DNA of 38,428 bases from a virus (lineage: Duplodnaviria > Caudoviricetes), in the IMG/VR virus record IMGVR_UViG_3300037424_000274, positions 1 through 38,428 of that record, one strand, 5' to 3'. The notes below the pieces were generated by a model. That model worked only from the letters and a program-made list of their open reading frames with translations, was not told the origin of the DNA and searched no databases. The translations under genes and the position numbers were made by a program. Shown in pieces: positions 13,693 through 28,414 of the stretch (position 1 is the first letter of the stretch; each line of letters opens with the position of its first letter).

Positions 13693-13720
13693 TTGCGAGT
13701 ATGCTACTTTGCAGTATAAT
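13693..13720 (+). promoter_or_regulatory. Sigma70-type promoter upstream of the tRNA
   Basis: TTGCGA-N16-TATAAT. Confidence 0.55.
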
Positions 13721-13784
13721 ATAAGCAGCCTCGTGTACCATGTGTACAAGGAGATCTGAAGCCCTCGGCAACGGGGGCGGATGT

Positions 13785-13856
13785 AGCGCGGTAGAGAAGT
13801 GGAATCTCGCCCGGCCCATAACCAGGAAATCGGCAGTTCGAATCTGCCCCGCGCCA
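13785..13856 (+). tRNA. tRNA-Met(CAT), initiator-like
   Basis: Acceptor AGCGCGG/CCGCGCC, D stem GAGA/TCTC, anticodon arm CCCGG-CCCATAA-CCAGG, T arm GGCAG-TTCGAAT-CTGCC. No encoded CCA. Confidence 0.88.
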
Positions 13857-15406: not shown

Positions 15407-15865
15407 TTATCCTTTCGCATTCTTCCAAACATTGAACATGAATACCGCCAACTTTTGCCACTTCTCTAGCTCTGCTGCGATATGAACGTGATCCATTGAA
15501 TTCTGCTTATGATCGCCAAGAGCCAAGTTATCAAGCCGGTTATCTTGCTTGTCTCCATTCAGGTGACGGACAACCTCGTGCCGGTTTAGCGGTCTTCCGA
15601 TCTTGCGCGCCATAACAAGCCGGTGTTCCAGGACGTAATGAAGTTTCGTATCAGCAAGCAGCTTGTCGTAATCAGACAGCATATAAAGCGAGATGGCTCT
15701 ATAGCCCTGGATGATATGACATTCATAATCCCTTGCCGACGGTTTGGCACGATTTACGGCCAACCTTCCCCCGCATTGTCTGCCGCACGTTGTTCGATCA
15801 ATTGTTCTAGCAAAATGCGCCCTGGTTACTTCAGCACCACACACTACGCAAATCCTTGTTTCCAT
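15407..15865 (-). CDS. HNH homing endonuclease with N-terminal Zn finger
   Basis: CVVCG...TCGRQC; YVLEHRLVMARKIGRPL...VRHLNGDKQDNRLDNL. Confidence 0.85.
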   Translation of the reverse strand: METRICVVCGAEVTRAHFARTIDRTTCGRQCGGRLAVNRAKPSARDYECHIIQGYRAISLYMLSDYDKLLADTKLHYVLEHRLVMARKIGRPLNRHEVVRHLNGDKQDNRLDNLALGDHKQNSMDHVHIAAELEKWQKLAVFMFNVWKNAKG

Positions 15866-16028
15866 GATAAAGCGCCCCCAATTATCTGGCCGACGGCTGC
15901 GGTTCTCAGGCACACAGCGGGTTAGACCAAATAACGGAGGGCGCTTTACCAACAAAATCATTTGTTGCGTTGCAGCCGCTTTAAATAAAGCGCCCGCCAT
16001 GTGTGCCTGAGATAAATAAATTATATCA
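15866..16028 (-). promoter_or_regulatory. Extended -10 promoter plus structured leader RNA (element A)
   Basis: TGATATAAT; 13-bp perfect inverted repeat (15904-15916/16000-16012); 26-bp anti-SD stem (15925-15950/15866-15891). Confidence 0.75.
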
Positions 16029-16348
16029 CGAATTTCCATTTGTGCGCATCGACTTTCCGGTGGGGGAGTACCAATTATAATGTGTACAATTTGGATAAAA
16101 CTTGACGGTTTCGATAAATAACATTATGCGCACCGTTTTATTATCGCAACCATACGCCACTTTTACCATGTTCTAACTCTGTTCTAACAATTCGTTTTGG
16201 TTCGCTCCAAGTCTACAAAAATGTATACTTTGGCGCAACGTAAATATACGCGTCTATATTTTCAAAGCCAGCCGACACCTGTAAATATGTTTCAAGGGTC
16301 TCCCCTCTTTAACATCTCCCAAATCGACAAATAATACTACACGCATTG

Positions 16349-16693
16349 TTATTCGTGCCTCTCCACCAGCGCCCTCAGCACGTCCCTTGGTGGCATATCT
16401 GCCCACTTGGTAGGCGGCTTGCGCGTTGTAGTACACCGCTTGCTAATATGTACCTCCCCACACTTTGAACAGGCTGGCGCAAGTCCGTCTAGTGGCGGCA
16501 GCCCCAACACGCGGCGGTAAACAGGGTTCTTTGGGTCACGTCCATTGGCTATTGCGCTCAGGGTTCCGGCGGGGACAATTGCCCCGAGAGCCACGGAAAC
16601 AGCACGCCACGTCCCCTTTATCCTTTTCAACCGTAGCAAATCAGCACGTACCTTGTCCAGCGTTTGGACACGATTTTTAATGTATGTTGTCAT
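16349..16693 (-). CDS. Hypothetical HTH-like protein with CxxC motif
   Basis: TWRAVSVAL...AGTLSAIANGRDP; CSKCG. Start uncertain. Confidence 0.55.
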   Translation of the reverse strand: MTTYIKNRVQTLDKVRADLLRLKRIKGTWRAVSVALGAIVPAGTLSAIANGRDPKNPVYRRVLGLPPLDGLAPACSKCGEVHISKRCTTTRKPPTKWADMPPRDVLRALVERHE

Positions 16694-16742
16694 CGCCAAT
16701 ACCCCCATTTGTGCGCCCATTTACGCGCCGTCGCTGGCGTGC

Positions 16743-17306
16743 TCATGCCTTCTCCAATCCGTACATCTGCAACGCCGCCGATCTGTTGGTGAACCTTGCC
16801 GAGTATGGCCCAGCGGCTGGTTTGACGTAGCCCATGATTGACCACTGGTCGGTTAGCGCCTGGAGCCATTTGCGTTCCTTGCTGCCCTCGCCGTAATCGC
16901 GCAGGGGTGGCAGGTAGTCCTCGAACCTGCTCACGTTGTAAGCGAATAGCCAGGGCACGCGCTCGCCGTTCACTTCGATGTATCGCGGCTCAATGCCTTC
17001 CAGCGCGGGTGACAGGTGGATGCTGTTCATCAGCGCGTCAAGCTGGCCTTCGTTCAACTTTGCCAGCACCTCCAGCACGCGGACCCGCTCGGTGTAGGAC
17101 TTTGCATCAATGACGCGCACGTAATTATCTACGCCGTTGGATGCCGCCCAGTTGACGCCCAGCAGCAGGGCTGCCAAGAGGAACACAATCGCGCACAAAT
17201 AACTGGCGATGTCGAAGCCGGGGGGTAGGTGGTCCTTCGCCACGAATAGGGCAACTGCAATAACAGCAGCCAATATCGCGTGTGTGATTCTAGGTTTGTT
17301 GAACAT
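16743..17306 (-). CDS. Hypothetical membrane protein (2 TM)
   Basis: Two hydrophobic N-terminal segments; GGAGG SD. Confidence 0.7.
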   Translation of the reverse strand: MFNKPRITHAILAAVIAVALFVAKDHLPPGFDIASYLCAIVFLLAALLLGVNWAASNGVDNYVRVIDAKSYTERVRVLEVLAKLNEGQLDALMNSIHLSPALEGIEPRYIEVNGERVPWLFAYNVSRFEDYLPPLRDYGEGSKERKWLQALTDQWSIMGYVKPAAGPYSARFTNRSAALQMYGLEKA

Positions 17307-17374
17307 AATCAGACCTCCCCCACCCCATCTGAAAGCGTGCTAAATTGGATATGTCCACCGCACGCACTGTAGAA

Positions 17375-17836
17375 TTACACGTTTTTCCAGGTAGTTCCAT
17401 CTACTATACCCGAAATTGTACGACGGTGAACACTATAAATTATGGCAAGTCTTTTCCTGCTATAACCTTGTAAAAATAGCGCCTTTATTTCCCGAACGTC
17501 TTTAGTGCTCAGACGATACAGGGAATTTTTATCTCCGCACATCTTGTTGACGGAGAAGTCCCTATTTCTACCCTTTTGTATCATGTCCCTAACGTTATCC
17601 AGGTTTGTTCCCAAGAACAAATGCTCAGGGTTCACGCAGTTCCTATTGTCGCATTTGTGCAATACAAACATGGCGGGGTGTTCGTTCCATTTTAGGAACC
17701 ACGAATAACGATGCGCCTTGTATGCTTTCCCGTTTACGTGGAAGCAACCATAGCCGTCCTCGTGGGTTGCGCCCGTCCAGAACCAGCACCCATCGGTCTT
17801 GTCTACCTTGCGCCAAAATCTTTCCTCATCGTTCAT
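17375..17836 (-). CDS. HNH homing endonuclease with C-terminal HTH
   Basis: RFWRKVDKTDGCWFWTG, AHRYSW, VLHKCDNRNCVNPEHLFLGT..DN..DM. Confidence 0.92.
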   Translation of the reverse strand: MNDEERFWRKVDKTDGCWFWTGATHEDGYGCFHVNGKAYKAHRYSWFLKWNEHPAMFVLHKCDNRNCVNPEHLFLGTNLDNVRDMIQKGRNRDFSVNKMCGDKNSLYRLSTKDVREIKALFLQGYSRKRLAIIYSVHRRTISGIVDGTTWKNV

Positions 17837-17998
17837 TTCTTTTCCCTGTTTTCTTTAGCTTATTGTTTAGCTTTACCCATTCCCGGTCGCTCTGCAAGAA
17901 TTGATTTTGACTTGGCAGCCCTACCCCATCCGGCAGCCCGGCAGGCGGCTTGTCGCGCGGGTCTTTAGGCTTGTCGGTTTGTTTTGTTGGTGTCATTT

Positions 17999-18217
17999 CT
18001 ACCTCTTGAATGTATGCGGTCGTGTTGCGGTGAATTCCTCGCCGCCGTCAACCGGAATGAACGTCTGGGAAGTTACGCCGGGCGGCCAAATAATATCCTC
18101 CGAACCTCGCTCGTTCCCGGCGCACGTATCGCATTGACCGCGAATGCCGTTATAGCCAAGTTTGTACAACTTCCCGCACATGGGACATTTTTTGACTACT
18201 GGTTTATTTGGGTTCAT
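17999..18217 (-). CDS. Small Zn-finger protein
   Basis: CPMCG...CDTC; ATGA overlap. Confidence 0.55.
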   Translation of the reverse strand: MNPNKPVVKKCPMCGKLYKLGYNGIRGQCDTCAGNERGSEDIIWPPGVTSQTFIPVDGGEEFTATRPHTFKR

Positions 18218-18432
18218 TTCGTTTCCTTTCGTGTTTTCTCAATGCGCGTGCAATTTTTACAAACCCTGTACGTGTCTGGGTAACGCGACAAGACTTCCTC
18301 AACAACTAAAAGAGGTGCATGGTCGGTAGTCATACCACATAAGGTGTGTACTGTTTCTCCCCACGGATACGTTACCCACTTTATATAATGGATCACACAG
18401 CCGAACCCGAGAGTCCATCCGTATGTAGTCAT
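18214..18432 (-). CDS. Small Cys/His-motif protein
   Basis: H...TLCG...CKNC; ATGA overlaps on both sides. Confidence 0.55.
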   Translation of the reverse strand: MTTYGWTLGFGCVIHYIKWVTYPWGETVHTLCGMTTDHAPLLVVEEVLSRYPDTYRVCKNCTRIEKTRKETK

Positions 18433-18731
18433 CGTTTCATGTTCCTTTCGCTCAATCGTTTAGTGGACTCTCTCAGCCTCAACCTGGTCATGTATCCGCT
18501 CGCCCGCATCTCCGCCTCTATCGCCTCAGCCTTCAGCTCTGCCCGGCGCTGCCTGACGTAGTACCCCTGCACCTCGCCCTCCCACCCGTCAGGCGGTGGC
18601 GTGAACGGGTCGGCGTCATGCGCTGGCGGGTCGGCTTGCTTTAGCCTGCCAAGTGCGCGGATAATGTCAATGGCTACCACCCCGGCGACAATGGCGATAG
18701 CGGTTAGGCACGCGCCTTGAAGCGGTGTCAC
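18429..18731 (-). CDS. Hypothetical protein with N-terminal TM segment
   Basis: GTG start overlapping the upstream stop (GTGA); CLTAIAIVAGVVAI. Confidence 0.5.
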   Translation of the reverse strand: MTPLQGACLTAIAIVAGVVAIDIIRALGRLKQADPPAHDADPFTPPPDGWEGEVQGYYVRQRRAELKAEAIEAEMRASGYMTRLRLRESTKRLSERNMKR

Positions 18732-18871
18732 AGCACCACCACGAACACGTACAGCGCCAGGCATATCACAATCAGCATGCCCAGGCACAGCAGGATAATC
18801 ACGCCCATCACAGGCGGCTTGTCGCTGCAATCGTCACAGGATAGCTCTTCGTCGTGCAGGTAGTCGTTCAT
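18728..18871 (-). CDS. Small membrane protein (47 aa)
   Basis: MNDYLHDEELSCDDCSDKPPVMGVIILLCLGMLIVICLALYVFVVVL; below the ORF-track cutoff; AAGGA SD. Confidence 0.5.
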   Translation of the reverse strand: MNDYLHDEELSCDDCSDKPPVMGVIILLCLGMLIVICLALYVFVVVL

Positions 18872-18889
18872 TGCTCATCCTTCCTTTGC

Positions 18890-18927
18890 GCCCAGGGGTG
18901 GCAGACCTGTATCATTCACCCCTGGGC
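18890..18927. other. Intergenic hairpin (terminator or processing site)
   Basis: Perfect 11-bp inverted repeat GCCCAGGGGTG/CACCCCTGGGC. Confidence 0.5.
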
Positions 18928-18949
18928 TGATAAGCCAGATCGCTGGCGG

Positions 18950-20032
18950 TTATCCTACGGGTTGCGCCTTCGCCTCAATGTGCGCGTTGATGATTGCTAA
19001 CACCTGCTCGGGCGTACTCTTCCAGTCCGGGCGTTCCTTCTGCAAAATGGCGTCGGCTTCGTATTCGTTGATGGGGCGCATACGAATCTCCCGCACCCAT
19101 GCCGCCGGGTAGTTGTGCCCCTCGCCCTTCTTGCCAAGCGATGCACCGCGTTCGGGGTAGTTGTAAGGCGTGTCTGTGTCCATCTCGCGCTGAATGTTTG
19201 CATCCAGATCGTCGTTAGCCGCGTCACCGCTTGGGCCAGGCATCGCGGATGCTACAAAGGCGCGTTGCTCTGCGGCGGTACGGGCGATAGGCTCGGCTTT
19301 GGGATGGGTGGTGGGCTCTACCTTCACGGTTACGGGCGGTTCCTCGTGCCACTCGCCCACCGCGTAATCCTCAATATCCTGGGTGAAGTATTCACTGGCG
19401 TTGCACCCTAACAGCACGGCGGCGATAATAGCGCGTTTCTGTGCCATCTTGTCGATAGTGTTCACTACGTCGGCGGGGTCCGGGTTCACCACCTGCCCTA
19501 CCTGCTGCCCGACAATCTCCGGGGCGGTATCCACAAACTTCGCACCGCACCCGCCTTTCTTCAAGAAGCACAACCACCCGCCGCCGAATTCCTTTTTACC
19601 GGCGATAATGGTAGCCTTGCCGCACTTGGGGCAGATGCGCTCACCGTTGCGGTAGCGGTATTTCTTTTCCCACGAGCTGCACGAGCCGATACCCTCAGCG
19701 ACAACCAACTCACCGCGCATTGCCTGGGCCTTGTAGCGGTAGAAGAAGAACGGCTCGCCGCCATGTTCCCCGCCGGTCCAATCCTCGGTGACGGTCATGC
19801 TCTGCAAGCGGATGGCCAGCCCGAAGAAGCGCGATAACTTCTCGGCTCCCGGCTTCAACAGGGTCGGCTTGCTACCAGCGCCGGGGATTACCCCGAAGTC
19901 TACGCCCTCATGCAGCACGCCAGCTACAAAGTCCTTCATGGATTGATACGCCTGGAGGGCCATGCGCAGGTCTGCAACCGGCGCGATAAACTGCGATTGT
20001 GGCATTGCCACCGTCAAAGCGTTCTCAGTCAT
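18950..20032 (-). CDS. Putative single-strand annealing/recombination protein with Zn-ribbon insertion
   Basis: GVDFGVIPG..KPTLLKPGAEKL...EGIGSCSSWE...CPKCG...NTIDKMAQKRA...FTQDIED, then a low-complexity tail. The SSAP function is inferred. Confidence 0.55.
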   Translation of the reverse strand: MTENALTVAMPQSQFIAPVADLRMALQAYQSMKDFVAGVLHEGVDFGVIPGAGSKPTLLKPGAEKLSRFFGLAIRLQSMTVTEDWTGGEHGGEPFFFYRYKAQAMRGELVVAEGIGSCSSWEKKYRYRNGERICPKCGKATIIAGKKEFGGGWLCFLKKGGCGAKFVDTAPEIVGQQVGQVVNPDPADVVNTIDKMAQKRAIIAAVLLGCNASEYFTQDIEDYAVGEWHEEPPVTVKVEPTTHPKAEPIARTAAEQRAFVASAMPGPSGDAANDDLDANIQREMDTDTPYNYPERGASLGKKGEGHNYPAAWVREIRMRPINEYEADAILQKERPDWKSTPEQVLAIINAHIEAKAQPVG

Positions 20033-20193
20033 TAGTATTTGCCTTTCCCGTTCGCCGTAAACTTGCGGATAACCCTCTGCTCGCGCCCGTTGTTGATGGC
20101 GCTGAACAGCCTGTCTAATTGGCATAAAAGCCACATGATACCGAACACGCTCGCGCACGCGATAAGCCAGAATGTAGCAGCGTCTAGTTTCAT
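20032..20193 (-). CDS. Small membrane protein
   Basis: MKLDAATFWLIACASVFGIMWLLC; GGAG SD; TAATG coupling. Confidence 0.5.
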   Translation of the reverse strand: MKLDAATFWLIACASVFGIMWLLCQLDRLFSAINNGREQRVIRKFTANGKGKY

Positions 20194-20377
20194 TCCAAAC
20201 TCCCCTCTGTGATTCTCCATCCAAGAGCCAACATGAATATGTTTTTATGTTCCAGATCCATGCTGTTCAGCCACACCAGGATGCGCCCGTGAATGTCGGT
20301 AATATCTTCAGCGCCCAGGCCATACACAATGTCGTAGATGTCGCTGGCAAGGCGTGGCAGGTCGAAATACGTTTCGT

Positions 20378-20683
20378 TCATAGCGTCACCCCATCCTCGA
20401 AAGCATCCGGGTGTTCCCACCAAATTTCTCGCATCAGCTGCAATTCGTTGTCGATGTCCGTCACCAGTTTGGCGGCCTCGCCCAGTGCCTCGCGCGTCAC
20501 GTCGGTCCCGGCCTGAATGTGCATATCTTCGGCCTGGTCTAGCTTCTCTAACGCCGCCCGAAGTTCCTCGTTCTTGCGCTGAATGGGCAGCGGTATCCAC
20601 ACGCGGGCTGGCGGCTCGATGCGCTCCCAACCGTGCGCCCACTCAGTCAATACTTCCGGCTTGCACGTGCATTGCGTGGTCAT
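20378..20683 (-). CDS. Hypothetical protein
   Basis: ATGA overlap with the upstream gene; helical C-terminus. Confidence 0.55.
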   Translation of the reverse strand: MTTQCTCKPEVLTEWAHGWERIEPPARVWIPLPIQRKNEELRAALEKLDQAEDMHIQAGTDVTREALGEAAKLVTDIDNELQLMREIWWEHPDAFEDGVTL

Positions 20684-20862
20684 GATTGCTCCCCTTCCGG
20701 CGCGGCCGGGATGATGCCAGCCTCGATAAGGCGGCGGTATTCCCGCTCCAGCAGCATGTCGATTACAGCAACCTTTGATGTTTGTGGGATTGTGTACTTC
20801 AGGATCGCCTGGAGCCTTTTCTCCCCCTTCTCCTTTAGCGTCACTACCGGTCTGCTTGCCAT
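20680..20862 (-). CDS. Small DNA-binding protein (Cro-position, ribbon-helix-helix-like)
   Basis: First gene after the leftward promoter; GGAGG SD; beta-helix-helix pattern PVVTL...SKVAVIDMLL. Confidence 0.55.
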   Translation of the reverse strand: MASRPVVTLKEKGEKRLQAILKYTIPQTSKVAVIDMLLEREYRRLIEAGIIPAAPEGEQS

Positions 20863-20904
20863 TTGGCCTCCCTAAATGATAGTTGAATTCTACGATCTAA
20901 TAAT

Positions 20905-20932
20905 ATTATACGCCGTTTGCTGGTGTTGTCAA
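20905..20932 (-). promoter_or_regulatory. Leftward early promoter
   Basis: TTGACA-N16-TATAAT on the minus strand. Confidence 0.85.
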
Positions 20933-20958
20933 GTATCAATCTTTATAAATATTAGTCC

Positions 20959-20987
20959 TTGACTTACAATATCATTACACTTATAAT
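20959..20987 (+). promoter_or_regulatory. Rightward promoter for the repressor-like gene
   Basis: TTGACT-N17-TATAAT; a second TATAAT at 21016-21021. Confidence 0.8.
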
Positions 20988-21035
20988 AAAATTATACGAA
21001 GGGGGCATAATCCGGTATAATGAGGAGGCACTTAC

Positions 21036-21416
21036 ATGGATGCAAGAAACAGGGCTGAAATACGCAAGATTTTGTTTAGGCTGAAACGGGCCTATGAGAA
21101 CGAGCAGGGCGCGGCGGTAAGCGATGCAGCATTCAGTGGGCGTATGGGGATTACCCCCAGCGTCTACAACGGATACAAGAAGGGCCATAATGTACCGGGC
21201 CCGGATAACAGTCGACTCATTGGGAGTTGGGTCGCCCGTTACCTGGGTGAGGTTGAGCGCAAGAAATTTATGGAGCTTTGCGGCCACGATGCTGAACTGC
21301 GCAAGATAGAGGGGCTCGACCTGGCCTACATAGTTGAACATTGGGAAGATGTCCCGATGGAAAAGAGGCGGGAAATTTATGACCAAGTTGCACAGCGAGA
21401 TAAGGCAGGACCGTGA
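21036..21416 (+). CDS. CI-position XRE-like HTH repressor
   Basis: SDAAFSGRMGITPSVYNGYKKGHNVPG; GAGGAGG SD; divergent from the small DNA-binding gene. Confidence 0.7.
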   Translation: MDARNRAEIRKILFRLKRAYENEQGAAVSDAAFSGRMGITPSVYNGYKKGHNVPGPDNSRLIGSWVARYLGEVERKKFMELCGHDAELRKIEGLDLAYIVEHWEDVPMEKRREIYDQVAQRDKAGP

Positions 21417-21531
21417 TGAGATAGAGTCGTTAGACTTACTGGATCAATTCATTGTTGGCTGGTATGAAGCAAGCGAGGAGGCCCGACGCCGGGCCTTTTC
21501 TATTGTCTGGAGCTATCTCCACCGTAATTAG
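21379..21531 (+). CDS. Small hypothetical protein
   Basis: MTKLHSEIRQ... overlapping the 3' end of the repressor. Confidence 0.35.
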   Translation: MTKLHSEIRQDRDEIESLDLLDQFIVGWYEASEEARRRAFSIVWSYLHRN

Positions 21532-21603
21532 ATAATCTACGCCAGGGGGATATTATACGGTCATCAAATGCGCCTCCGGCGTCCTACGATCAAATATTAG
21601 TAG

Positions 21604-21632
21604 TTGACATTCGTATGATAATGCCTTACAAT
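21604..21632 (+). promoter_or_regulatory. Promoter of the replication operon
   Basis: TTGACA-N17-TACAAT. Confidence 0.8.
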
Positions 21633-21659
21633 GGAATTGATTTGACGCGCGGAATGCGC

Positions 21660-21797
21660 CGGGTGCCAGCCCGAAAACACAGGGAAGCGCCAGAGTAGAC
21701 CCTTCGCGGGTTCTTCAACTGGTCGGTAGGTATAGCCCTGGCAGGCTCAGCTTCCCGGCCCAACCGATCAGTTGAAGAGCGCACGAGGGGTTTTTGT
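21660..21797 (+). ncRNA. C4-like antisense/attenuator leader RNA (element C)
   Basis: CGGG-TGCCAG-CCCG and AGCC-CTGGCA-GGCT hairpins have complementary loops; GGGAAGC/GCTTCCC; ~28-bp stem ending in a U-tract. Confidence 0.65.
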
Positions 21798-21813
21798 ATC
21801 AAGGGGTGAGGGG

Positions 21814-21915
21814 ATGATCTTTCAATACATTTACGCAATAGTAACTCGGTGGTCGTTCTGGCTGGTCGTTGCGTTCATTATCGGCGCGGTGATTGGCTTG
21901 TGGCTGAGGGGGTAG
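21814..21915 (+). CDS. 33-aa single-TM peptide
   Basis: MIFQYIYAIVTRWSFWLVVAFIIGAVIGLWLRG with a G-rich SD. Confidence 0.5.
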   Translation: MIFQYIYAIVTRWSFWLVVAFIIGAVIGLWLRG

Positions 21916-21919
21916 GGGG

Positions 21920-22267
21920 ATGGAATTAGATTACGCCCTGAGCCTTGCGACCTTGTTGACAGACAATCACCAGACCAGGCCGCTACTGCTCGATGACTGG
22001 TATGAGGAATTTGACCCGGGATTTGTGAATTACTACGAGTACATCAAATCACCTGAGTGGCGGGTGAGAGCCAATGCAGCTAAACGACGCGCCGGGTATC
22101 GCTGCCAGACTTGCGGAAGCAATAACAAATTGCAAGCGCATCATCTTAGTTATGACCGCCTGGGTGATGAACGGGAAGAGGACATAAAAGTTCTTTGTGA
22201 TGAATGCCACGAAGCGGTAAGTAAAGCCCATAAGAAAGTAAACAACTACGGCGATATTCCTTATTAG
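21920..22267 (+). CDS. HNH endonuclease (McrA-like Zn-binding type)
   Basis: YIKSPEW, YRCQTCG, LQAHHLSY, VLCDECH. Confidence 0.85.
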   Translation: MELDYALSLATLLTDNHQTRPLLLDDWYEEFDPGFVNYYEYIKSPEWRVRANAAKRRAGYRCQTCGSNNKLQAHHLSYDRLGDEREEDIKVLCDECHEAVSKAHKKVNNYGDIPY

Positions 22268-22274
22268 GTGACTT

Positions 22275-23282
22275 ATGACTATCGATACCATCTTACGCGA
22301 TAACGACCTGCTGCGCCTTGCGGAACACGACGGGGCGCAATTCAAGAAAGGACGTACTGACTGGCGTTCACATTGTCCCATTCACAAAGGTGAAGACAGA
22401 GGCGCGTTTGCAGTATGGGAAGAAGATGGTAAGCAGAAATGGAAATGCTTTACCGGAGTATGCGGCAGCGGTGACGTGCTTGATTATGTCATGGCATACG
22501 AACGGGTGGACCTAAAACGGGCGATGGAGATATTAGGCGGCGATCATCCCGTAACCCAGGCCGAAGCACAACAAGCCGCCGAAGCCCGCCGCGTAAGTGC
22601 TGAGGCATACGAGGCAAGGAAACGCGCTGAATACCACCAGGCGCTAGAAGAATTGTGGCGGGCGCGAATGTGGGAACGCTATTACACCAACCTGGAAAAC
22701 GACCCGGACGCGCAACAGTTATGGATCAAGCGGGGCATACCCGTTGACTGGCAGAGTTTATGGCAGTTAGGGTATTGCCCCGATTTTGTTTATTCTACCG
22801 ACGGCGCGGTACATCATTCAGCATCTTTGACCATCCCGATATTCACGGGCAGGGACCAGCCCGACAATATCAGGCACAGGATACTAAGCCCGTTCAACCC
22901 GAACGACAAGTACCGCCCGGATCGCCCAGGATTGAAGGCTCTCCCGTTCATGGCCGACCAGTACGAGAAAGACCATGAATGCGTGCTTGTTGTTGAAGGG
23001 GAAATCAAGGCGATGGTTTCCTATATATGGCTTGACTCGAAGAAGTGGCAGGTGTACGGGATACCGGGAAAAGAGCAGTACCGGGAGTTGTGTGAATCGC
23101 TGAAAGGCCGGGCGGTATGGTTTGCGTTTGATCCTGACGCTACATCTCAGGCGGAGGCGGCCGCTCGGGTTGTTGGGGGGCGGGTGATACCGATGGTTAC
23201 AAAGATAGATGACGCCCTGAATGCACGGATCTTAAATACTAAATCTCTTAGACGGCTTTTATCAATGGCAAGGAAGGTATAG
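22275..23282 (+). CDS. DNA primase (CHC2 Zn finger + TOPRIM)
   Basis: CPIH...WKCFTGVCGSGDVLDY; VLVVEGEIKA; FDPD. Confidence 0.85.
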   Translation: MTIDTILRDNDLLRLAEHDGAQFKKGRTDWRSHCPIHKGEDRGAFAVWEEDGKQKWKCFTGVCGSGDVLDYVMAYERVDLKRAMEILGGDHPVTQAEAQQAAEARRVSAEAYEARKRAEYHQALEELWRARMWERYYTNLENDPDAQQLWIKRGIPVDWQSLWQLGYCPDFVYSTDGAVHHSASLTIPIFTGRDQPDNIRHRILSPFNPNDKYRPDRPGLKALPFMADQYEKDHECVLVVEGEIKAMVSYIWLDSKKWQVYGIPGKEQYRELCESLKGRAVWFAFDPDATSQAEAAARVVGGRVIPMVTKIDDALNARILNTKSLRRLLSMARKV

Positions 23283-23975
23283 ATGGCAAACGCAAGGTTT
23301 TCTATCTTACAGGCTAAGGCGGTTGAGGACAAGCGTATCAGTAATGCGCAATTTAGAACGCTGGCGGCATTAGGTACGTTTGGGGATAAAGAAGGGTGGT
23401 GCTTTCCTAAGTTGAAAACAATAGCTGACATGATTGGAAAGACAAGACAGGCCGTAAACCGTGACTTGATACACCTTCAAAAGTTAGAGTACATCGAAAT
23501 CCACCACCAGCACCGGCCCGACGGAGGACTATCGAGCAGCTTATATCGCCTGATATTCGACCCCCCCGTAAACACTACGCTTACACCCCATCAACCTCAG
23601 GAGCTTACACCTGTAAGCGTGGCGGTTGATACCCCATCAACATCTGAGGTTGACGCATTAACGCCCCATGTTAACGACCCATCTAATGATCCAGAAGAAG
23701 TAGTAGAAGAACCACAACGCCCTAATGTTTACGGGGTGTATGAACGGGAGGTTGGGGGACTAACCCAAATGATAGGTGAAATGCTAGACGAAATTGACAA
23801 GGCATACCCGGAAGGGTGGTTCGAGAAGGCGGTGAGAGAAGCAAAGAAAAGCACAACTAGAGTGACGTTGAAATATATCGAGGCAATTATGAAAAGGTGG
23901 AAGGCGGAAGGATTACCGGGTGAAATGATTGACGCGCCCGCCTTCACGTCAAACACCGGAAGGGTATCGCTATGA
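23283..23975 (+). CDS. Replication initiator (N-terminal wHTH, C-terminal DnaD-like)
   Basis: GWCFPKLKTIADMIG..RQAVNRDL; YEREVGGLT...LKYIEAIMKRW. Confidence 0.85.
   Translation: MANARFSILQAKAVEDKRISNAQFRTLAALGTFGDKEGWCFPKLKTIADMIGKTRQAVNRDLIHLQKLEYIEIHHQHRPDGGLSSSLYRLIFDPPVNTTLTPHQPQELTPVSVAVDTPSTSEVDALTPHVNDPSNDPEEVVEEPQRPNVYGVYEREVGGLTQMIGEMLDEIDKAYPEGWFEKAVREAKKSTTRVTLKYIEAIMKRWKAEGLPGEMIDAPAFTSNTGRVSL
23566..23690. repeat. Iteron-like repeats, putative replication origin
   Basis: ACCCCATCAAC x2, GCTTACACC x2 and GGTTGA x2 cluster in the initiator linker, as in lambdoid origins. Confidence 0.55.
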
Positions 23976-25018
23976 CTGAAAAAGAATTCGATCCAAAGTC
24001 TGCCGTTTACACGCCGCCAGAGGTTGCTACCTATACCCTGGACGCGATCAAGGAAGTCAAGGAATTAAAGACGCGGGGTATCGCCCTTCCAATAGCAGAC
24101 ATAAAAGATTATTTTGCACCGCTGCTGCCGGGTCAGATATGCGTAGTCCAGGCGCAAACCCACCAGTACAAAAGCGGCTTCCTTCACTTTTGGGAGAACG
24201 CGGCCGCTTTGCAGTTGATGGAGGACGGGCGCGATGATGAAGCAATTATTCACGTATCGGTTGAGGAAGTTGTAGAAGAACAGGGTTTCTTGATGCTCGG
24301 GCGCATGACCGGTGAAGACGCCGGGAAGTTGGCAAGGGGTGAGGTACAGGACTGGTCAAGGTTAGAGGCTGAGGCGCAGCGTATCGGCACAATTCCTATC
24401 TACCGGATAGGCGATAGCCTGGCCCGCGCCGAGGATATGCCAAACCTGTACTTATCTAATATGGTCAGGGCTATTCGGTCGCTGGTGGATGGCAGCGTAA
24501 CCGGGCGCAAGATCAAGCCCGCCCTGCTTACCTTCGACTATTTGCAAGCCTTCCCCATCGATCCAGAGATAAAGAAGGCGCAATTAGAAAACCAGCGCAA
24601 TCTACAAGTACGCCAGGATTTCTATAGACTCTACCAGGCGGCTGCTTACTTCAAGTGTCCGACCCTTGTGGCTGTACAGGCCAAACAAGAACTAGAAAAA
24701 CGAAGGGGGGATAGTAAGATGCCGGGAATGTATGACGCCCAGGAAACCAGCGCAATTGCACAACGTACTCAGCGCATGATAAGCCTTTGGATGCCAAAGG
24801 TAACAGAAGGGGTAGGTTCGCAAATTACGATTGACAACCAAACGCTAACCGTCACAGAGAATATGCTATTCGTCAAAGTGGCGAAGCAGCGCGGTGGCTT
24901 ACCATCCGGTCAGACGTGGTTATGCCAGATCGACTTCAGCAAGAACCTGATAGCGCCACTCGTTACGGACAAGCAATCCCAGCCCGCCACGCAGTACCCG
25001 AAGGGGCGGCAGTCATGA
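23972..25018 (+). CDS. DnaB-like (SF4) replicative helicase
   Basis: LLPGQI, HVSVEE, LLTFDYLQ, VAVQ, TSAIAQ, VAKQRGG. Walker A is atypical. Confidence 0.8.
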   Translation: MTEKEFDPKSAVYTPPEVATYTLDAIKEVKELKTRGIALPIADIKDYFAPLLPGQICVVQAQTHQYKSGFLHFWENAAALQLMEDGRDDEAIIHVSVEEVVEEQGFLMLGRMTGEDAGKLARGEVQDWSRLEAEAQRIGTIPIYRIGDSLARAEDMPNLYLSNMVRAIRSLVDGSVTGRKIKPALLTFDYLQAFPIDPEIKKAQLENQRNLQVRQDFYRLYQAAAYFKCPTLVAVQAKQELEKRRGDSKMPGMYDAQETSAIAQRTQRMISLWMPKVTEGVGSQITIDNQTLTVTENMLFVKVAKQRGGLPSGQTWLCQIDFSKNLIAPLVTDKQSQPATQYPKGRQS

Positions 25019-25185
25019 CCACCCACATCATCACCTACCTGCACCGCTGCCGCCGCTGCCTATGCGAGTGGCGGGCGTCGTATGCCGAGGCGAGATGCCC
25101 CAGGTGTAACGGGGCTGACGTGAGGGTGGATATTCAACTTTCAGCGAATGATGAAAAGAAAGGAATGCGAGATGAGCGAATATAA
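25015..25185 (+). CDS. Small Zn-ribbon protein
   Basis: CRRC...CPRC; ATGA overlap. Confidence 0.55.
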   Translation: MTTHIITYLHRCRRCLCEWRASYAEARCPRCNGADVRVDIQLSANDEKKGMRDERI

Positions 25186-25543
25186 AGAGAAACTTCTTGC
25201 AAGCGCCAAGGGTATGGATTCATATTCATTCCAGGATTGGCTAATTGCCAAGTTGGAATATGCCGAGAGGACTATCCAGAGAGTCGAGGGTGATCTTATC
25301 CAATCGAACGCCGAGCGGGACAGATATTACGAGCGCATTCAGGAATTGATCGTGGAGAACAACAAGCTGTTTGACTTGTCTAGCCGTATGCGGTGCGCCA
25401 TTGGATATTTGTACGACCAATGCGATAACGTACCCCATGCAGATAACTGCGACGTAGACAACACCGGATATTGCACGTGTGCAAGGGCCGAATTCAACTC
25501 GCTGGTAGTGAATTATCACGCCGAATTCCAGGGGAAACTATGA
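25172..25543 (+). CDS. Hypothetical coiled-coil protein with Cys/His motif
   Basis: AAGGA SD; H..NC......CTC. Confidence 0.55.
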   Translation: MSEYKEKLLASAKGMDSYSFQDWLIAKLEYAERTIQRVEGDLIQSNAERDRYYERIQELIVENNKLFDLSSRMRCAIGYLYDQCDNVPHADNCDVDNTGYCTCARAEFNSLVVNYHAEFQGKL

Positions 25544-25728
25544 CCCCCACGCAACCCCGGCTAACCATGCACGAACTTACCATCCCCGACCACTTGCGCC
25601 CCGGCCCTATCGTTGCGGTATCCGACACGAACACGGCGCGGGATAAGGCTGACGCGGATGCGGCGGCAAGGGCGCGGGCGCTGGCGGAATACATGGCGAA
25701 GGTGAACGCAGGGAGGGGGCGACGATGA
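25540..25728 (+). CDS. Hypothetical protein
   Basis: ATGA overlaps on both sides. Confidence 0.5.
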   Translation: MTPTQPRLTMHELTIPDHLRPGPIVAVSDTNTARDKADADAAARARALAEYMAKVNAGRGRR

Positions 25729-26174
25729 CCACCACACGATTACCGGACGATACCCTGACGTTTGGCAGGCTAGTCTACTGCTCTTCGTGTGGCAAGCCTG
25801 TCTACCGACGGCGTATCAACGTGACCGGCCCGCGTTGTGACAAATGCAGGAGAGAGGTACGCAACGAGTACAACCGGCGGCGACGGCGTGGCCTGGAGCC
25901 CGCAGTCATACACGGACCTTATCAGCCGCGCGAGCCTAAAGAGAGGCAGGGCCGCTACACCGCGATACTTACGGCTGGCACGGTGCTGGTCTACCATGCG
26001 GGCTACCGGGCGCGGGTGGTGTTCGAGTATGAGCAGTACCCTATCGAGGAGATACGCGCGAGCCTGGCGGCGGATGCGCTTCCGGACGGGGTGACGTTCC
26101 ACGCGATGAGGGGCGGAGTGGACTTGGGCTACTGGCGGGCTGAGTGCGGAAGTTTGGTTGAGGCGCAACCATGA
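25725..26174 (+). CDS. Zn-finger hypothetical protein
   Basis: CSSCG...CDKC; coupled to neighbours. Confidence 0.55.
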   Translation: MTTTRLPDDTLTFGRLVYCSSCGKPVYRRRINVTGPRCDKCRREVRNEYNRRRRRGLEPAVIHGPYQPREPKERQGRYTAILTAGTVLVYHAGYRARVVFEYEQYPIEEIRASLAADALPDGVTFHAMRGGVDLGYWRAECGSLVEAQP

Positions 26175-26359
26175 CCGGCTGGCGAGCCCTGCGCACGTGC
26201 GAGGAATGGGCGTTCGCGTTGACGGTGGCACTTGGCTACTACTACGCATGGGCGGATGAGTACGCTTGCGAGACGGCATTCGCTGAACGGCCGTGCTACT
26301 GGACTTGGGACACGATGAATGAGAAAACGAGGCTGGAATGGAAGCGAGGGATGAAATGA
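26171..26359 (+). CDS. Hypothetical protein
   Basis: ATGA overlaps; Trp-rich. Confidence 0.5.
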   Translation: MTGWRALRTCEEWAFALTVALGYYYAWADEYACETAFAERPCYWTWDTMNEKTRLEWKRGMK

Positions 26360-26715
26360 GTACAGGCGATTGGATTGCAGTATGCACGAAGTGCGGAAGA
26401 GAATACTTCTATGGGCACGTTTGTGAAATTATGCGCAGGTATGCGGTTGGTTCGTACGAAGTGTGGAATAGCCCGAACACGTTCTGGAACAACCCGCTAA
26501 AAAAGGAGCGCGACGAAGCCAGAGCCTGGGCGCGGAAGCTGTATCGGCAGGTAGAGGGGCAATCCGCCCGTATCGGACAGTTAGAGGTGTCGGTGGAAAC
26601 GCAATCCGCCTATATCGCACAGCTAGAGGCGGCGGTGAGGGATGCGGAATACTTTGCGCACAAAGACGCTGACGCCCGCAAACTACGCGACGAACTGAGG
26701 GCGAGGGGCAAATGA
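26356..26715 (+). CDS. Hypothetical coiled-coil protein
   Basis: CTKCG; ERDEARAWARKL. Confidence 0.55.
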   Translation: MSTGDWIAVCTKCGREYFYGHVCEIMRRYAVGSYEVWNSPNTFWNNPLKKERDEARAWARKLYRQVEGQSARIGQLEVSVETQSAYIAQLEAAVRDAEYFAHKDADARKLRDELRARGK

Positions 26716-27011
26716 AAGCATATAAAGCTTCGTTCGATGGCGAAGAATGGATGACGCTTATTCACGGCGAATCCACGGCAAAGGCTAAGTATCGCTTTAT
26801 GCGGTGCGAACCTACCGGCTTTGCCGATAAATCGATGTGGGTAGATGCTCGCCTGGTACGTTTACCGGAGTGGGACAATCGCCCATTTGTGGACGGCGAA
26901 GAAATTAGATTGCTATTCCTGCCGTCAGACTATACCGAGGACGGCGAAGGATTATTTGACCCGTTTGTGAATGACTGTGACTGCGAGTTATGCAAGGCGA
27001 GGGGCAAATGA
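26712..27011 (+). CDS. Hypothetical protein
   Basis: Flanked by 16-bp direct repeats; C-terminal CDCELC. Confidence 0.6.
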   Translation: MKAYKASFDGEEWMTLIHGESTAKAKYRFMRCEPTGFADKSMWVDARLVRLPEWDNRPFVDGEEIRLLFLPSDYTEDGEGLFDPFVNDCDCELCKARGK

Positions 27012-27211
27012 CCGATACCACTATTGATACTATCGAGGCACGGGCTAAGGCATTGAACCTCCAGCGCGCCGACCGGCTACCGTTCGACTGGACCGACCAG
27101 GCGTATGACCTTGACACGGCATACCGGGCGTATGTAAGGCGAAGGCAGTGTAAGCCTAACATGTTCTTTGAGCGGCGCGGATATGTGTACGTGTGGAGAG
27201 ATGGGGCATGA
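27008..27211 (+). CDS. Hypothetical protein
   Basis: ATGA overlaps on both sides. Confidence 0.5.
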   Translation: MTDTTIDTIEARAKALNLQRADRLPFDWTDQAYDLDTAYRAYVRRRQCKPNMFFERRGYVYVWRDGA

Positions 27212-27261
27212 TAACAATTTGCCTAGACTGGCCCGCTAGAGAGCTATCCCCGAACGCCCGC
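27208..27261 (+). pseudogene. 5' remnant of a RusA-like resolvase gene
   Basis: MITICLDWPARELSPNAR matches the L.WP...LSPNAR start of phage RusA-like proteins; interrupted by a promoter. Confidence 0.55.
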
Positions 27262-27267
27262 GTTCTG

Positions 27268-27436
27268 TGGTATAATTGTAATTACCTAGACGAACGGATA
27301 ACCAGGGCGCTTTGCTTTAACCAAGGCCGCCGTTTATTCCACAAATGTTTTTGTGGGCAAAGTGCCCCTCATGTGTAGGACTCACGTCCTGGCTGTTCGT
27401 CTAGGTAACGACGGCGCACATGGGGGGCATTTTGCT
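27268..27436 (+). promoter_or_regulatory. Extended -10 promoter plus structured leader RNA (element B)
   Basis: TGGTATAAT; 16-bp stem (27282-27297/27393-27408); 20-bp anti-SD stem (27356-27375/27417-27436). Confidence 0.75.
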
Positions 27437-28414
27437 ATGTGGACACAAGAAGAAGACAATTTGTTAAGAGACCTTTATGAGGTACGCGAATACGCAGAAA
27501 TCGGCGAGATATTAGGGAAAACACAGAACGCAATTAGAAACAGATGCTGGAGATTGAGGCTTAGAAAGCGTCCTGCGTTTTGGACAGACGAAGAAATTGA
27601 TGTTCTCAAATCCCATTACCTGTCTGCGGGTGTATTCAGAGTAGACCTCGATGCATTGGCAAAGTCGATGGGGCGGGGACGAATGTCTGTCGCCCTCAAA
27701 GCGTCCGAGCTAGGTCTTTGCAACAAAGGGCGAGTGAAGCGTGGGGGGAGAAAAGACCACAGGAAGTACAAGGGGGATAAGGCTTTGTTGCACAAGGCCC
27801 TTAGCGACCATTCCAAAAGAATGATAGCCGAAAGGGGGCACACCAGGGGAATGCTCGGGAAACACCATTCAATAGATACCAAGAAAATACTTTCGGCTAA
27901 GTCTCAATTCGCGCAAATGAGAACGACTGAAGAAGAGCGGGAGAGAAGGCGGGCAAAAAGGAGGGAAACAAACATGGCGAGATATGGCACTTATGCGCCA
28001 CAAATGAAATCGTCTAATCCGTATAGTCGGGCGAGGGGTGGAAAGCGAGAGGATTTAGATAATAGATATTTCCGTTCATCCTGGGAGGCAAACTACGCAA
28101 GGTATTTAAACCTCCTTGTTCTACAGGGGAAAATACTTAGATGGGAATATGAGCCGGAAACGTTTTACTTTCCCAACGTAAAGCGAGGCGCGTTGTCATA
28201 CACGCCAGACTTCAGACTTTATGAATTGGACGGAAGCATTGTTTATCACGAAGTAAAGGGGTGGATGGACACAAAGAGTAAAACAAAGCTCAGGCGCATG
28301 AAGCAGCACTTCCCAAACATTAAAATTGTAATCATAGACGCCGAACAATATAAATCGGTAAGTCAATTCGCGGGACTGATTACGGGATGGGAGTCTAACA
28401 AATGGGACTTCTAA
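27437..28414 (+). CDS. PD-(D/E)XK endonuclease (DUF1064/T7 endo I-like) with Myb-like repeats and NUMOD3-like motif
   Basis: WTQEED/WTDEEI repeats; GKHHSIDTKKILS; FRSSWE...WEYEPETF...YTPDF...EVKG. Confidence 0.8.
   Translation: MWTQEEDNLLRDLYEVREYAEIGEILGKTQNAIRNRCWRLRLRKRPAFWTDEEIDVLKSHYLSAGVFRVDLDALAKSMGRGRMSVALKASELGLCNKGRVKRGGRKDHRKYKGDKALLHKALSDHSKRMIAERGHTRGMLGKHHSIDTKKILSAKSQFAQMRTTEEERERRRAKRRETNMARYGTYAPQMKSSNPYSRARGGKREDLDNRYFRSSWEANYARYLNLLVLQGKILRWEYEPETFYFPNVKRGALSYTPDFRLYELDGSIVYHEVKGWMDTKSKTKLRRMKQHFPNIKIVIIDAEQYKSVSQFAGLITGWESNKWDF

Follow-up and report, generated by a model that had tools for sequence, protein, structure and literature searches.

A family of leader RNAs that heads mobile endonuclease cassettes in phages: a candidate antisense lock on nuclease translation

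Why would a phage carry the same structured leader RNA twice, each time in front of a different endonuclease gene? The question is raised by IMG/VR virus record IMGVR_UViG_3300037424_000274 (Caudoviricetes). All 38,428 bases of it were analysed and are called the window here; they form a complete circular phage genome. A preliminary description had listed nine parts that occur in the same order in element A (16028-15866, minus strand) and element B (27268-27436, plus strand), and had proposed a portable family of promoter, RNA switch and nuclease. Every one of the nine parts is where that description placed it. We find that A and B belong to a real, covarying and uncatalogued RNA family that heads mobile endonuclease cassettes. 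The idea of a portable family is borne out by 16 members, strong covariation, three nuclease superfamilies, varied contexts and alleles free of the cassette. Regarding function, we hold with moderate confidence to a full model: A and B each stand at the head of a mobile phage endonuclease cassette, and the RNA would be a two-loop antisense lock on nuclease translation, of the type known from the C4 RNA of phages P1 and P7 and the CI RNA of P4. We are much surer of some control of nuclease translation by the RNA than of the step in which it would act in trans. The anatomy of the cassette, both sets of helices, the match between loops and targets, and an open reading frame through the RNA can be regarded as established at the level of sequence.

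Both elements begin with a predicted extended -10 promoter motif, which is kept in the family (A, 16020-16028; B, 27268-27276). The 5' strand of a long stem, P1, starts 7 nucleotides (nt) past the -10 box in A (16000-16012) and 5 nt past it in B (27282-27297). It is followed by box 1 (A, 15986-15995; B, 27305-27315), a segment X (15972-15979; 27328-27334), a small hairpin P3 (15950-15967; 27339-27356) and a strand consisting of AAAGYGCCC and a variable extension (15926-15949; 27357-27376). We call this the anti-SD strand, after the Shine-Dalgarno (SD) region that it can cover. In B a second small hairpin, P4, comes next (27378-27389). The P1 3' strand (15904-15916; 27393-27408), the anti-X target (15893-15900; 27410-27416) and a box carrying both the anti-extension and the SD (15867-15890, the main target in A; 27416-27435) complete the leader. 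The SD-bearing segment is a third copy of a GGGCRYTTT box and pairs with the anti-SD strand and its extension over about 20 base pairs (bp) in B and over 24 bp, with mismatches, in A. Downstream of A lies an HNH_3 endonuclease gene of 152 amino acids (15407-15865, minus strand; Pfam E 1e-10). Downstream of B lies a gene of 325 amino acids (27437-28414, plus strand) for a Myb-like plus DUF1064 (PD-(D/E)XK) endonuclease that belongs to PHROG 190. The preliminary description had read both genes correctly, and the two products are, as it said, unrelated (best E 6.2). The shared hairpin with AAAGYGCCC occurs exactly twice in the window and has matches in none of 100 shuffles; compared with their own shuffles, the leaders fold with z values of -5.9 (A) and -5.6 (B).

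Pattern scans of IMG/VR returned 0, 2, 2, at least 118, 17, 24 and 32 loci, which were filtered for the paired architecture; the remaining loci were discarded as chance matches. The family thus consists of 16 distinct members, namely A, B and 14 from IMG/VR phage records (14 members in 16 records). A covariance model, R1, was built from the first 14 members. In the window it finds no loci other than A and B, and it gives 156 and 109 bits to the two members found later (L344 and L335). The covariation claimed for the paired segments is present in the 14-member alignment, where double-sided changes occur in 13 of the 15 P1 pairs and in 5 of the 14 pairs of the SD helix. No shuffle among 500 reaches the P1 or SD-helix values and slid controls are about 40% paired, both kinds of control leaving the relatedness of the members in place. 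G-U pairs recur, which points to an RNA on the sense strand. The small hairpin, also said to be conserved, keeps its stem across the family; the sequence of its loop is not kept. A scan of the window with Rfam (E<=1) gave a tRNA as the sole match, and a scan of 14 loci (11 other members and three divergent leaders described below) gave no match to the C4 clan at E<=5. Neither the window nor the scanned loci match C4, c4-2, c4-a1b1 or HEARO. Two snoRNA matches on L305 were below the gathering score and were taken as chance.

A library-confirmed nuclease gene lies downstream in 14 of the 16 members: ten times HNH, three times GIY-YIG and once PD-(D/E)XK. One of the ten HNH genes is reached through a 7-codon open reading frame (ORF) that overlaps its start. 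This is the case at L280:2429-2452, where the stop of the 7-codon ORF headed by the element overlaps the start of an HNH_3 gene of 279 amino acids, recalling by analogy the coupling of icd and ant. The protein downstream of L277 was not counted as a nuclease; it has no Pfam or PHROG match, and Atlas named no family for it. The SD box of the intact RNA element at L271:2456-2730 is followed by no start codon and no nuclease, and the gene after it has a ribosome site of its own, 93 nt further on. This element may be a remnant after loss of the nuclease, or a co-opted leader.

Members are found behind a capsid gene, among tail genes, at a junction of HNH and terS genes, in replication modules and among sugar-modifying genes, the names of these genes having been assigned by reading the sequences of neighbouring ORFs. 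Empty alleles are demonstrated at one locus, the HNH-terS junction. There (L289) the search for terS relatives returned 12 loci, five of which show the upstream gene. In all five, two of them nearly identical to each other, HNH immediately precedes terS and the cassette is absent. An HNH, GIY-YIG or PD-(D/E)XK gene set between other genes, together with empty alleles, is what characterizes a free-standing homing endonuclease cassette, and the family fits this description, with the empty alleles seen at that one locus. The window holds two more HNH genes that do not have this leader, at 17375-17836 (minus strand) and 21920-22267 (plus strand). The former is 39% identical to the nuclease of L284, and therefore the RNA head and the nuclease are separable modules. 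At L308:1195-1295 a short coupled ORF 3' of the nuclease stop resembles the 3' tail of the HNH gene of cassette-free relatives and terminates a few bases before terS. It looks as if the insertion had split the HNH gene and yet kept the ribosome relay. One DNA sequencing run, which may have been where the window sequence came from, shows a circular genome, with no listed joint that skips cassette A or B.

The preliminary description overlooked a second fold, which is also conserved. In the predicted open fold, P1, P3, P4 and a helix between box 1 and the anti-SD strand are formed, leaving X, the extension and the SD free. In the predicted locked fold, the anti-SD strand and the extension cover the SD, and two further helices join box 1 to X and anti-X to the P1 3' strand. 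Modelling indicates that both folds are conserved across the family. In 13 of 14 leaders the open, P1-closed fold is predicted to stay lowest in energy as long as the SD region is not yet transcribed, and in the remaining one throughout. Once the leader is full, the SD-paired fold is predicted to be lower by 0.3-7.5 kcal/mol in 12 of 14. In all 16 members P1 follows the -10 box at a distance of 2-7 nt, and in most it has 12-17 unbroken pairs. Anti-X starts no more than 4 nt from the base of P1, X lies beyond P2, and the P1, X:anti-X and anti-SD:SD helices mutually cross in cis. Such crossing, with anti-X so close to the base of P1, suits pairing between molecules.

If leaders do meet one another, their variable segments should tell them apart. 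X and anti-X can form 6-9 bp in 16 of 16 members, with no G-U pair in ten. Cognate duplexes are predicted to be more stable than non-cognate ones, both for X (-13.8 versus -10.3 kcal/mol) and for the extension (-10.4 versus -5.6 kcal/mol), and the cognate extension is the best partner in 10 of 14 cases. For the X segments of A and B, cross energies are -6.2 and -9.7 kcal/mol as against -16.8 and -11.7 for the cognate pairs; A and B are thus predicted to be largely orthogonal. The variable segments match their own leader only, the longest other match in the window being 9-10 nt. The diversity of X is low. Half of the members (8 of 16) share a code of the GCTGCC type, and hence orthogonality rests mostly on the extension. 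It had been suggested, by analogy with C4 and CI, that the variable pairs are a code for antisense specificity. This suggestion fits the anatomy and the predicted orthogonality of A and B, and it holds less well for X, which has few codes. We infer action in trans from the modelled geometry and from the presence of different codes in one genome.

Another property missed at first is that a reading frame runs open through the RNA. Between the -10 box and the start codon there are 6, 37 and 46 stop codons in frames 0 (that of the nuclease), +1 and +2, respectively, and 12, 2 and 2 of the 16 members are free of stops in these frames. Among the first 14 members the nuclease frame is open in 10, with 1.9 expected from dinucleotide shuffles, and an upstream start reaches the nuclease start in 11, with 2.9 expected. 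When five close members are collapsed, the corresponding values are 6 of 10 versus 1.5 and 7 of 10 versus 2.3. L344 and L335, which were found after the idea of the frame had been formed, each carry an ATG, six bases ahead of the -10 box, that is coupled to an upstream stop and fused to the nuclease. Overall, 10 of the 16 members have a start upstream of the -10 box that is coupled to the stop of the preceding gene and opens a frame extending past the anti-SD strand. Seven of these ten frames are fused to the nuclease, two end just after its start, and that of B ends in the extension. The frame in B has 56 codons (27208-27378, plus strand). It starts at an ATG that overlaps the stop codon of the gene before it (26990-27211), crosses the promoter, P1, box 1, X and the anti-SD strand, and has no match in a Pfam search. 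In A an ATG at 16037-16039 (minus strand), 14 nt 5' of the -10 hexamer, opens a frame that spans the leader and is fused to the HNH gene. At the other end of the cassette, the nuclease stop overlaps a downstream start codon or lies within 5 nt of it in 11 of 14 complete genes. A conserved leader peptide can be ruled out: the members read the conserved boxes in different frames. What matters about the open frame is therefore likely to be the transit of ribosomes. With the frame open and its start coupled, a phage mRNA that reads through would bypass the lock and keep the downstream genes coupled.

The full model can be described as follows. The promoter of the cassette would start transcripts at the first bases of P1, and such transcripts would be without the upstream ATG. 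The nascent RNA would fold into the P1-closed form, in which box 1 masks the anti-SD strand; the ribosome site would then be free, allowing a first burst of nuclease. Trimming at the 3' side would release the P1-closed domain, about 115-135 nt long, and this stable RNA would accumulate. The X and extension loops of the released RNA would then pair with anti-X and anti-extension on new leaders, the anti-SD strand would exchange onto the SD, and translation would be turned off. Longer mRNAs, made from phage promoters further upstream, would admit ribosomes at a start codon within or shortly ahead of the promoter motif, in most cases one coupled to the stop of the gene before. The passage of these ribosomes would open the lock and pass ribosomes on to the next phage gene, and nuclease would be made when the operon is on. 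Since ribosomes would be handed to the next phage gene, the insertion would not be polar. As a tentative suggestion, which we regard as quite possible, the whole may be an antisense immunity module for selfish endonucleases, portable and coded by sequence, with a promoter motif that doubles as a start codon coupled to the upstream gene. By means of one head of 170 nt, any nuclease gene could enter a phage operon without polar effects; the cassette would fire on reaching a naive cell and afterwards be silenced in trans, along with arriving cassettes that share its code.

Much of this might be accomplished by a single molecule. In a kinetic timer acting only in cis, the transcript would open, permit brief translation and refold to the SD-paired form, with an X:anti-X pseudoknot nucleating or delaying the change. 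In its favour, each fold is complete and conserved in cis, the two differ little in energy, and 12 of 14 full leaders have the SD-paired one as their minimum. Neither in A nor in B was a processing signal or terminator found behind P1. Furthermore, most members have the hairpin between the P1 3' strand and anti-X. The SD-paired fold is thus itself conserved in cis, and a cis-only switch would explain much of the anatomy, which counts against the antisense lock. In those same 12 of 14 leaders, however, refolding would have to cross a barrier of 26-42 kcal/mol, as estimated over nested paths with pseudoknotted paths ignored; this limit of the estimate works in favour of the timer. Awkward for a timer is the placing of anti-X, no more than 4 nt from the base of a long stem, with X beyond P2. 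So are the different loop codes that one phage maintains in its two copies, a difference of consequence only if the RNAs meet in trans. We consider the timer rather unlikely. Several other points weigh against the antisense lock or against parts of it. Only 6 of 14 targets have their cognate X as the best partner. The analysis does not separate the two folds in L277 and L291, and the open fold is the predicted minimum for the held-out L344 and L335. As to the read-through, stops interrupt the nuclease frame in 4 of the 16 members, such a frame is entirely lacking in L277 and L291, the upstream ATG of A is not coupled to any gene, and the promoter motif by itself would lead one to expect an ATG at -6. 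As the members are related and their tree has no resolution, P values from shuffles overstate independence. Finally, L271 has no adjacent nuclease.

Other explanations keep the RNA and change its purpose. The leader could be locked at rest, with a released RNA or a protein at anti-X shifting it to the open fold, as in the case of IsrK of Gifsy-1 (precedent in the excerpts of PMC4825925). The locked fold is indeed the predicted minimum for most full leaders, and an RNA on anti-X would block the P1-3'/anti-X hairpin of that fold. Yet the released RNA also has about 20 nt complementary to the SD region and would cover it, and three unrelated nuclease superfamilies speak against the nuclease as ligand; this kind of activation seems to us quite improbable. 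Alternatively, the phage itself might profit from an RNA-antitoxin or superinfection-exclusion module, the nuclease being toxic in cells without the cognate RNA, like icd of P1 or kil of P4. The regulatory logic would be the same as in P1 immI and P4, and a tyrosine integrase is present in two of the four other carrier records tested. We nevertheless find this improbable, because the passengers are typical homing-type proteins (HNH, and GIY-YIG with NUMOD repeats) at unrelated positions, relatives without the cassette exist, the 39% identical HNH homologue in the window has no leader, and no integrase was found in the genome of the window itself. The preliminary description also mentioned, as more speculative, a guide-RNA role. 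In the manner of HEARO or OMEGA, the RNA would then guide the nuclease or serve it as a cofactor. It is true that a structured RNA adjoins a nuclease gene and that HNH is its commonest partner. This proposal is not supported and is very improbable: near-identical RNAs precede HNH, GIY-YIG and PD-(D/E)XK enzymes, the variable segments find no targets in the window outside their own leader, and Rfam gives no HEARO-type match. Whatever the details, the antisense lock on translation is the reading we prefer.

A strict hairpin pattern found no viral contigs, because the P3 loop is not conserved, and in a metagenome scan it returned 111 loci and no members. The scan of GTDB genomes gave 18 loci and no members; its pattern required GGGG where most members have GAGG, and it therefore says little. 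The family pattern is absent from 401 genomes of the class to which the Anaerolineae record G012 belongs, and the helicase of the window has no match in 151 genomes out of that set; a Chloroflexota host for the window phage is thus unsupported by these two scans. Searches with blastn against GenBank phages and PLSDB plasmids gave no match, and no RNA sequencing run is listed as holding the window sequence. Three carrier phages have divergent second leaders, L298 (G002:3096-3284), L299 (G004:44693-44849) and L300 (G005:48383-48520), with scores of 41.5, 34.1 and 20.8 bits. Each has a -10 box, a P1 stem and a downstream target of 17-22 bp followed by a U-rich run. These may be terminator versions of the leader. 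L298 and L300 lie upstream of T5orf172/MUG113 proteins and L299 upstream of a protein of 262 amino acids with no named family.

A few other features of the window deserve mention. A tRNA gene (13785-13856, plus strand; 50.3 bits) lies where the late and leftward gene blocks meet, and a contig from the DNA run omits 13703-13830. Strong back-to-back promoters at 20905-20987 stand between two small divergent ORFs, neither of which has a PHROG match; the region (20680-21416) suggests a repressor/cro-like switch, although the genome yielded no integrase. At 21604-21810 (plus strand) a strong sigma70-type promoter (11/12) precedes an 18-bp hairpin with a second closing helix and a U-run, and a 7-nt segment at 21682, upstream of the hairpin, is complementary to the inner loop of the hairpin (21756). 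This resembles a P4-type attenuator upstream of HNH and primase genes. Over its full 290 nt, the region has only a weak folding advantage compared with shuffles (z -1.9).

How does the family compare with systems already known? C4 of P1 and P7 (RF01695; c4-a1b1, c4-2) is a P1-closed branched RNA with two exposed loops in the order of their downstream targets. According to the excerpts of PMC5320573, its b' loop occludes the ribosome binding site (RBS) and its a' loop, 7-11 nt long, gives specificity; C4 families and their icd/ant targets are listed in PMC2864571, PMC5737381 and PMC10695390. The same layout is predicted here in silico, with one loop over the RBS and the other a short variable code: segment X of A resembles the a' loop and its anti-SD strand with extension the b' loop. 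There are also differences from C4. P1 begins 2-7 nt past the -10 box, which leaves no room for separate upstream targets and, on transcripts from the promoter of the cassette, no RNase P leader, so that these transcripts need no 5' cut. Further differences are an internal box that masks the anti-RBS strand, a coupled reading frame through the RNA, and a cargo of homing-type endonucleases (14 of 16) instead of icd/ant. There is no match to the Rfam covariance models of C4. A second likeness is to P4 CI (seqA/seqB/seqC) and to Gifsy-1 IsrK, in which one segment is complementary to an upstream and a downstream box and there are alternative folds; CI RNA is described in PMC4825925 as pairing with boxes upstream and downstream of itself. 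IsrK activates, unlike the RNA proposed here. CI leads to premature termination, whereas the downstream box here is a ribosome site, 3-5 nt ahead of the start codon. A and B gave no terminator-like site; the U-run after the helix is short there and runs into the start codon.

HEARO and OMEGA are structured RNAs beside an HNH gene, and they combine one protein family with a guide segment. In our family three nuclease superfamilies share the RNA, and its variable parts pair within the leader only. The ways in which homing endonucleases are kept from doing harm in phages are known mainly from simple hairpins of T4. In T4-type homing endonucleases (I-TevI/II/III, segB, Aeh1 mobE), as described in the excerpts of PMC2988022, an RNA helix hides the RBS and the promoter of the transcript decides the outcome: the hairpin is simple, long upstream transcripts are locked, and an internal late promoter unlocks. 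The common point is a helix over the RBS of a homing endonuclease. In contrast to the T4 arrangement, in which transcripts from the inner promoter do without the 5' arm, the conserved -10 motif here precedes the whole fold, there are two states and coded loops, and upstream transcripts would be unlocked by translation. A weak promoter site (9/12) does occur inside A (15909-15881), with no counterpart in B.

We found no description of C4-like RNAs on homing endonucleases in the open-licence PMC and bioRxiv literature. If the model is correct, phages have a richer solution than the T4 hairpin, namely antisense logic in the style of C4 and CI on a swappable head for three nuclease superfamilies, and an open frame across the RNA by which translation of the host operon would be kept up. 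The 16 matched pairs of lock and key RNAs are a natural panel, directly testable in reporters, and the family can serve as a marker for mobile nuclease cassettes in uncultured phages. It works like C4 and CI, as far as its predicted logic goes, and it is not a member of their group: it has no Rfam match, no RNase P leader on transcripts from its own promoter, and a cargo of another kind.

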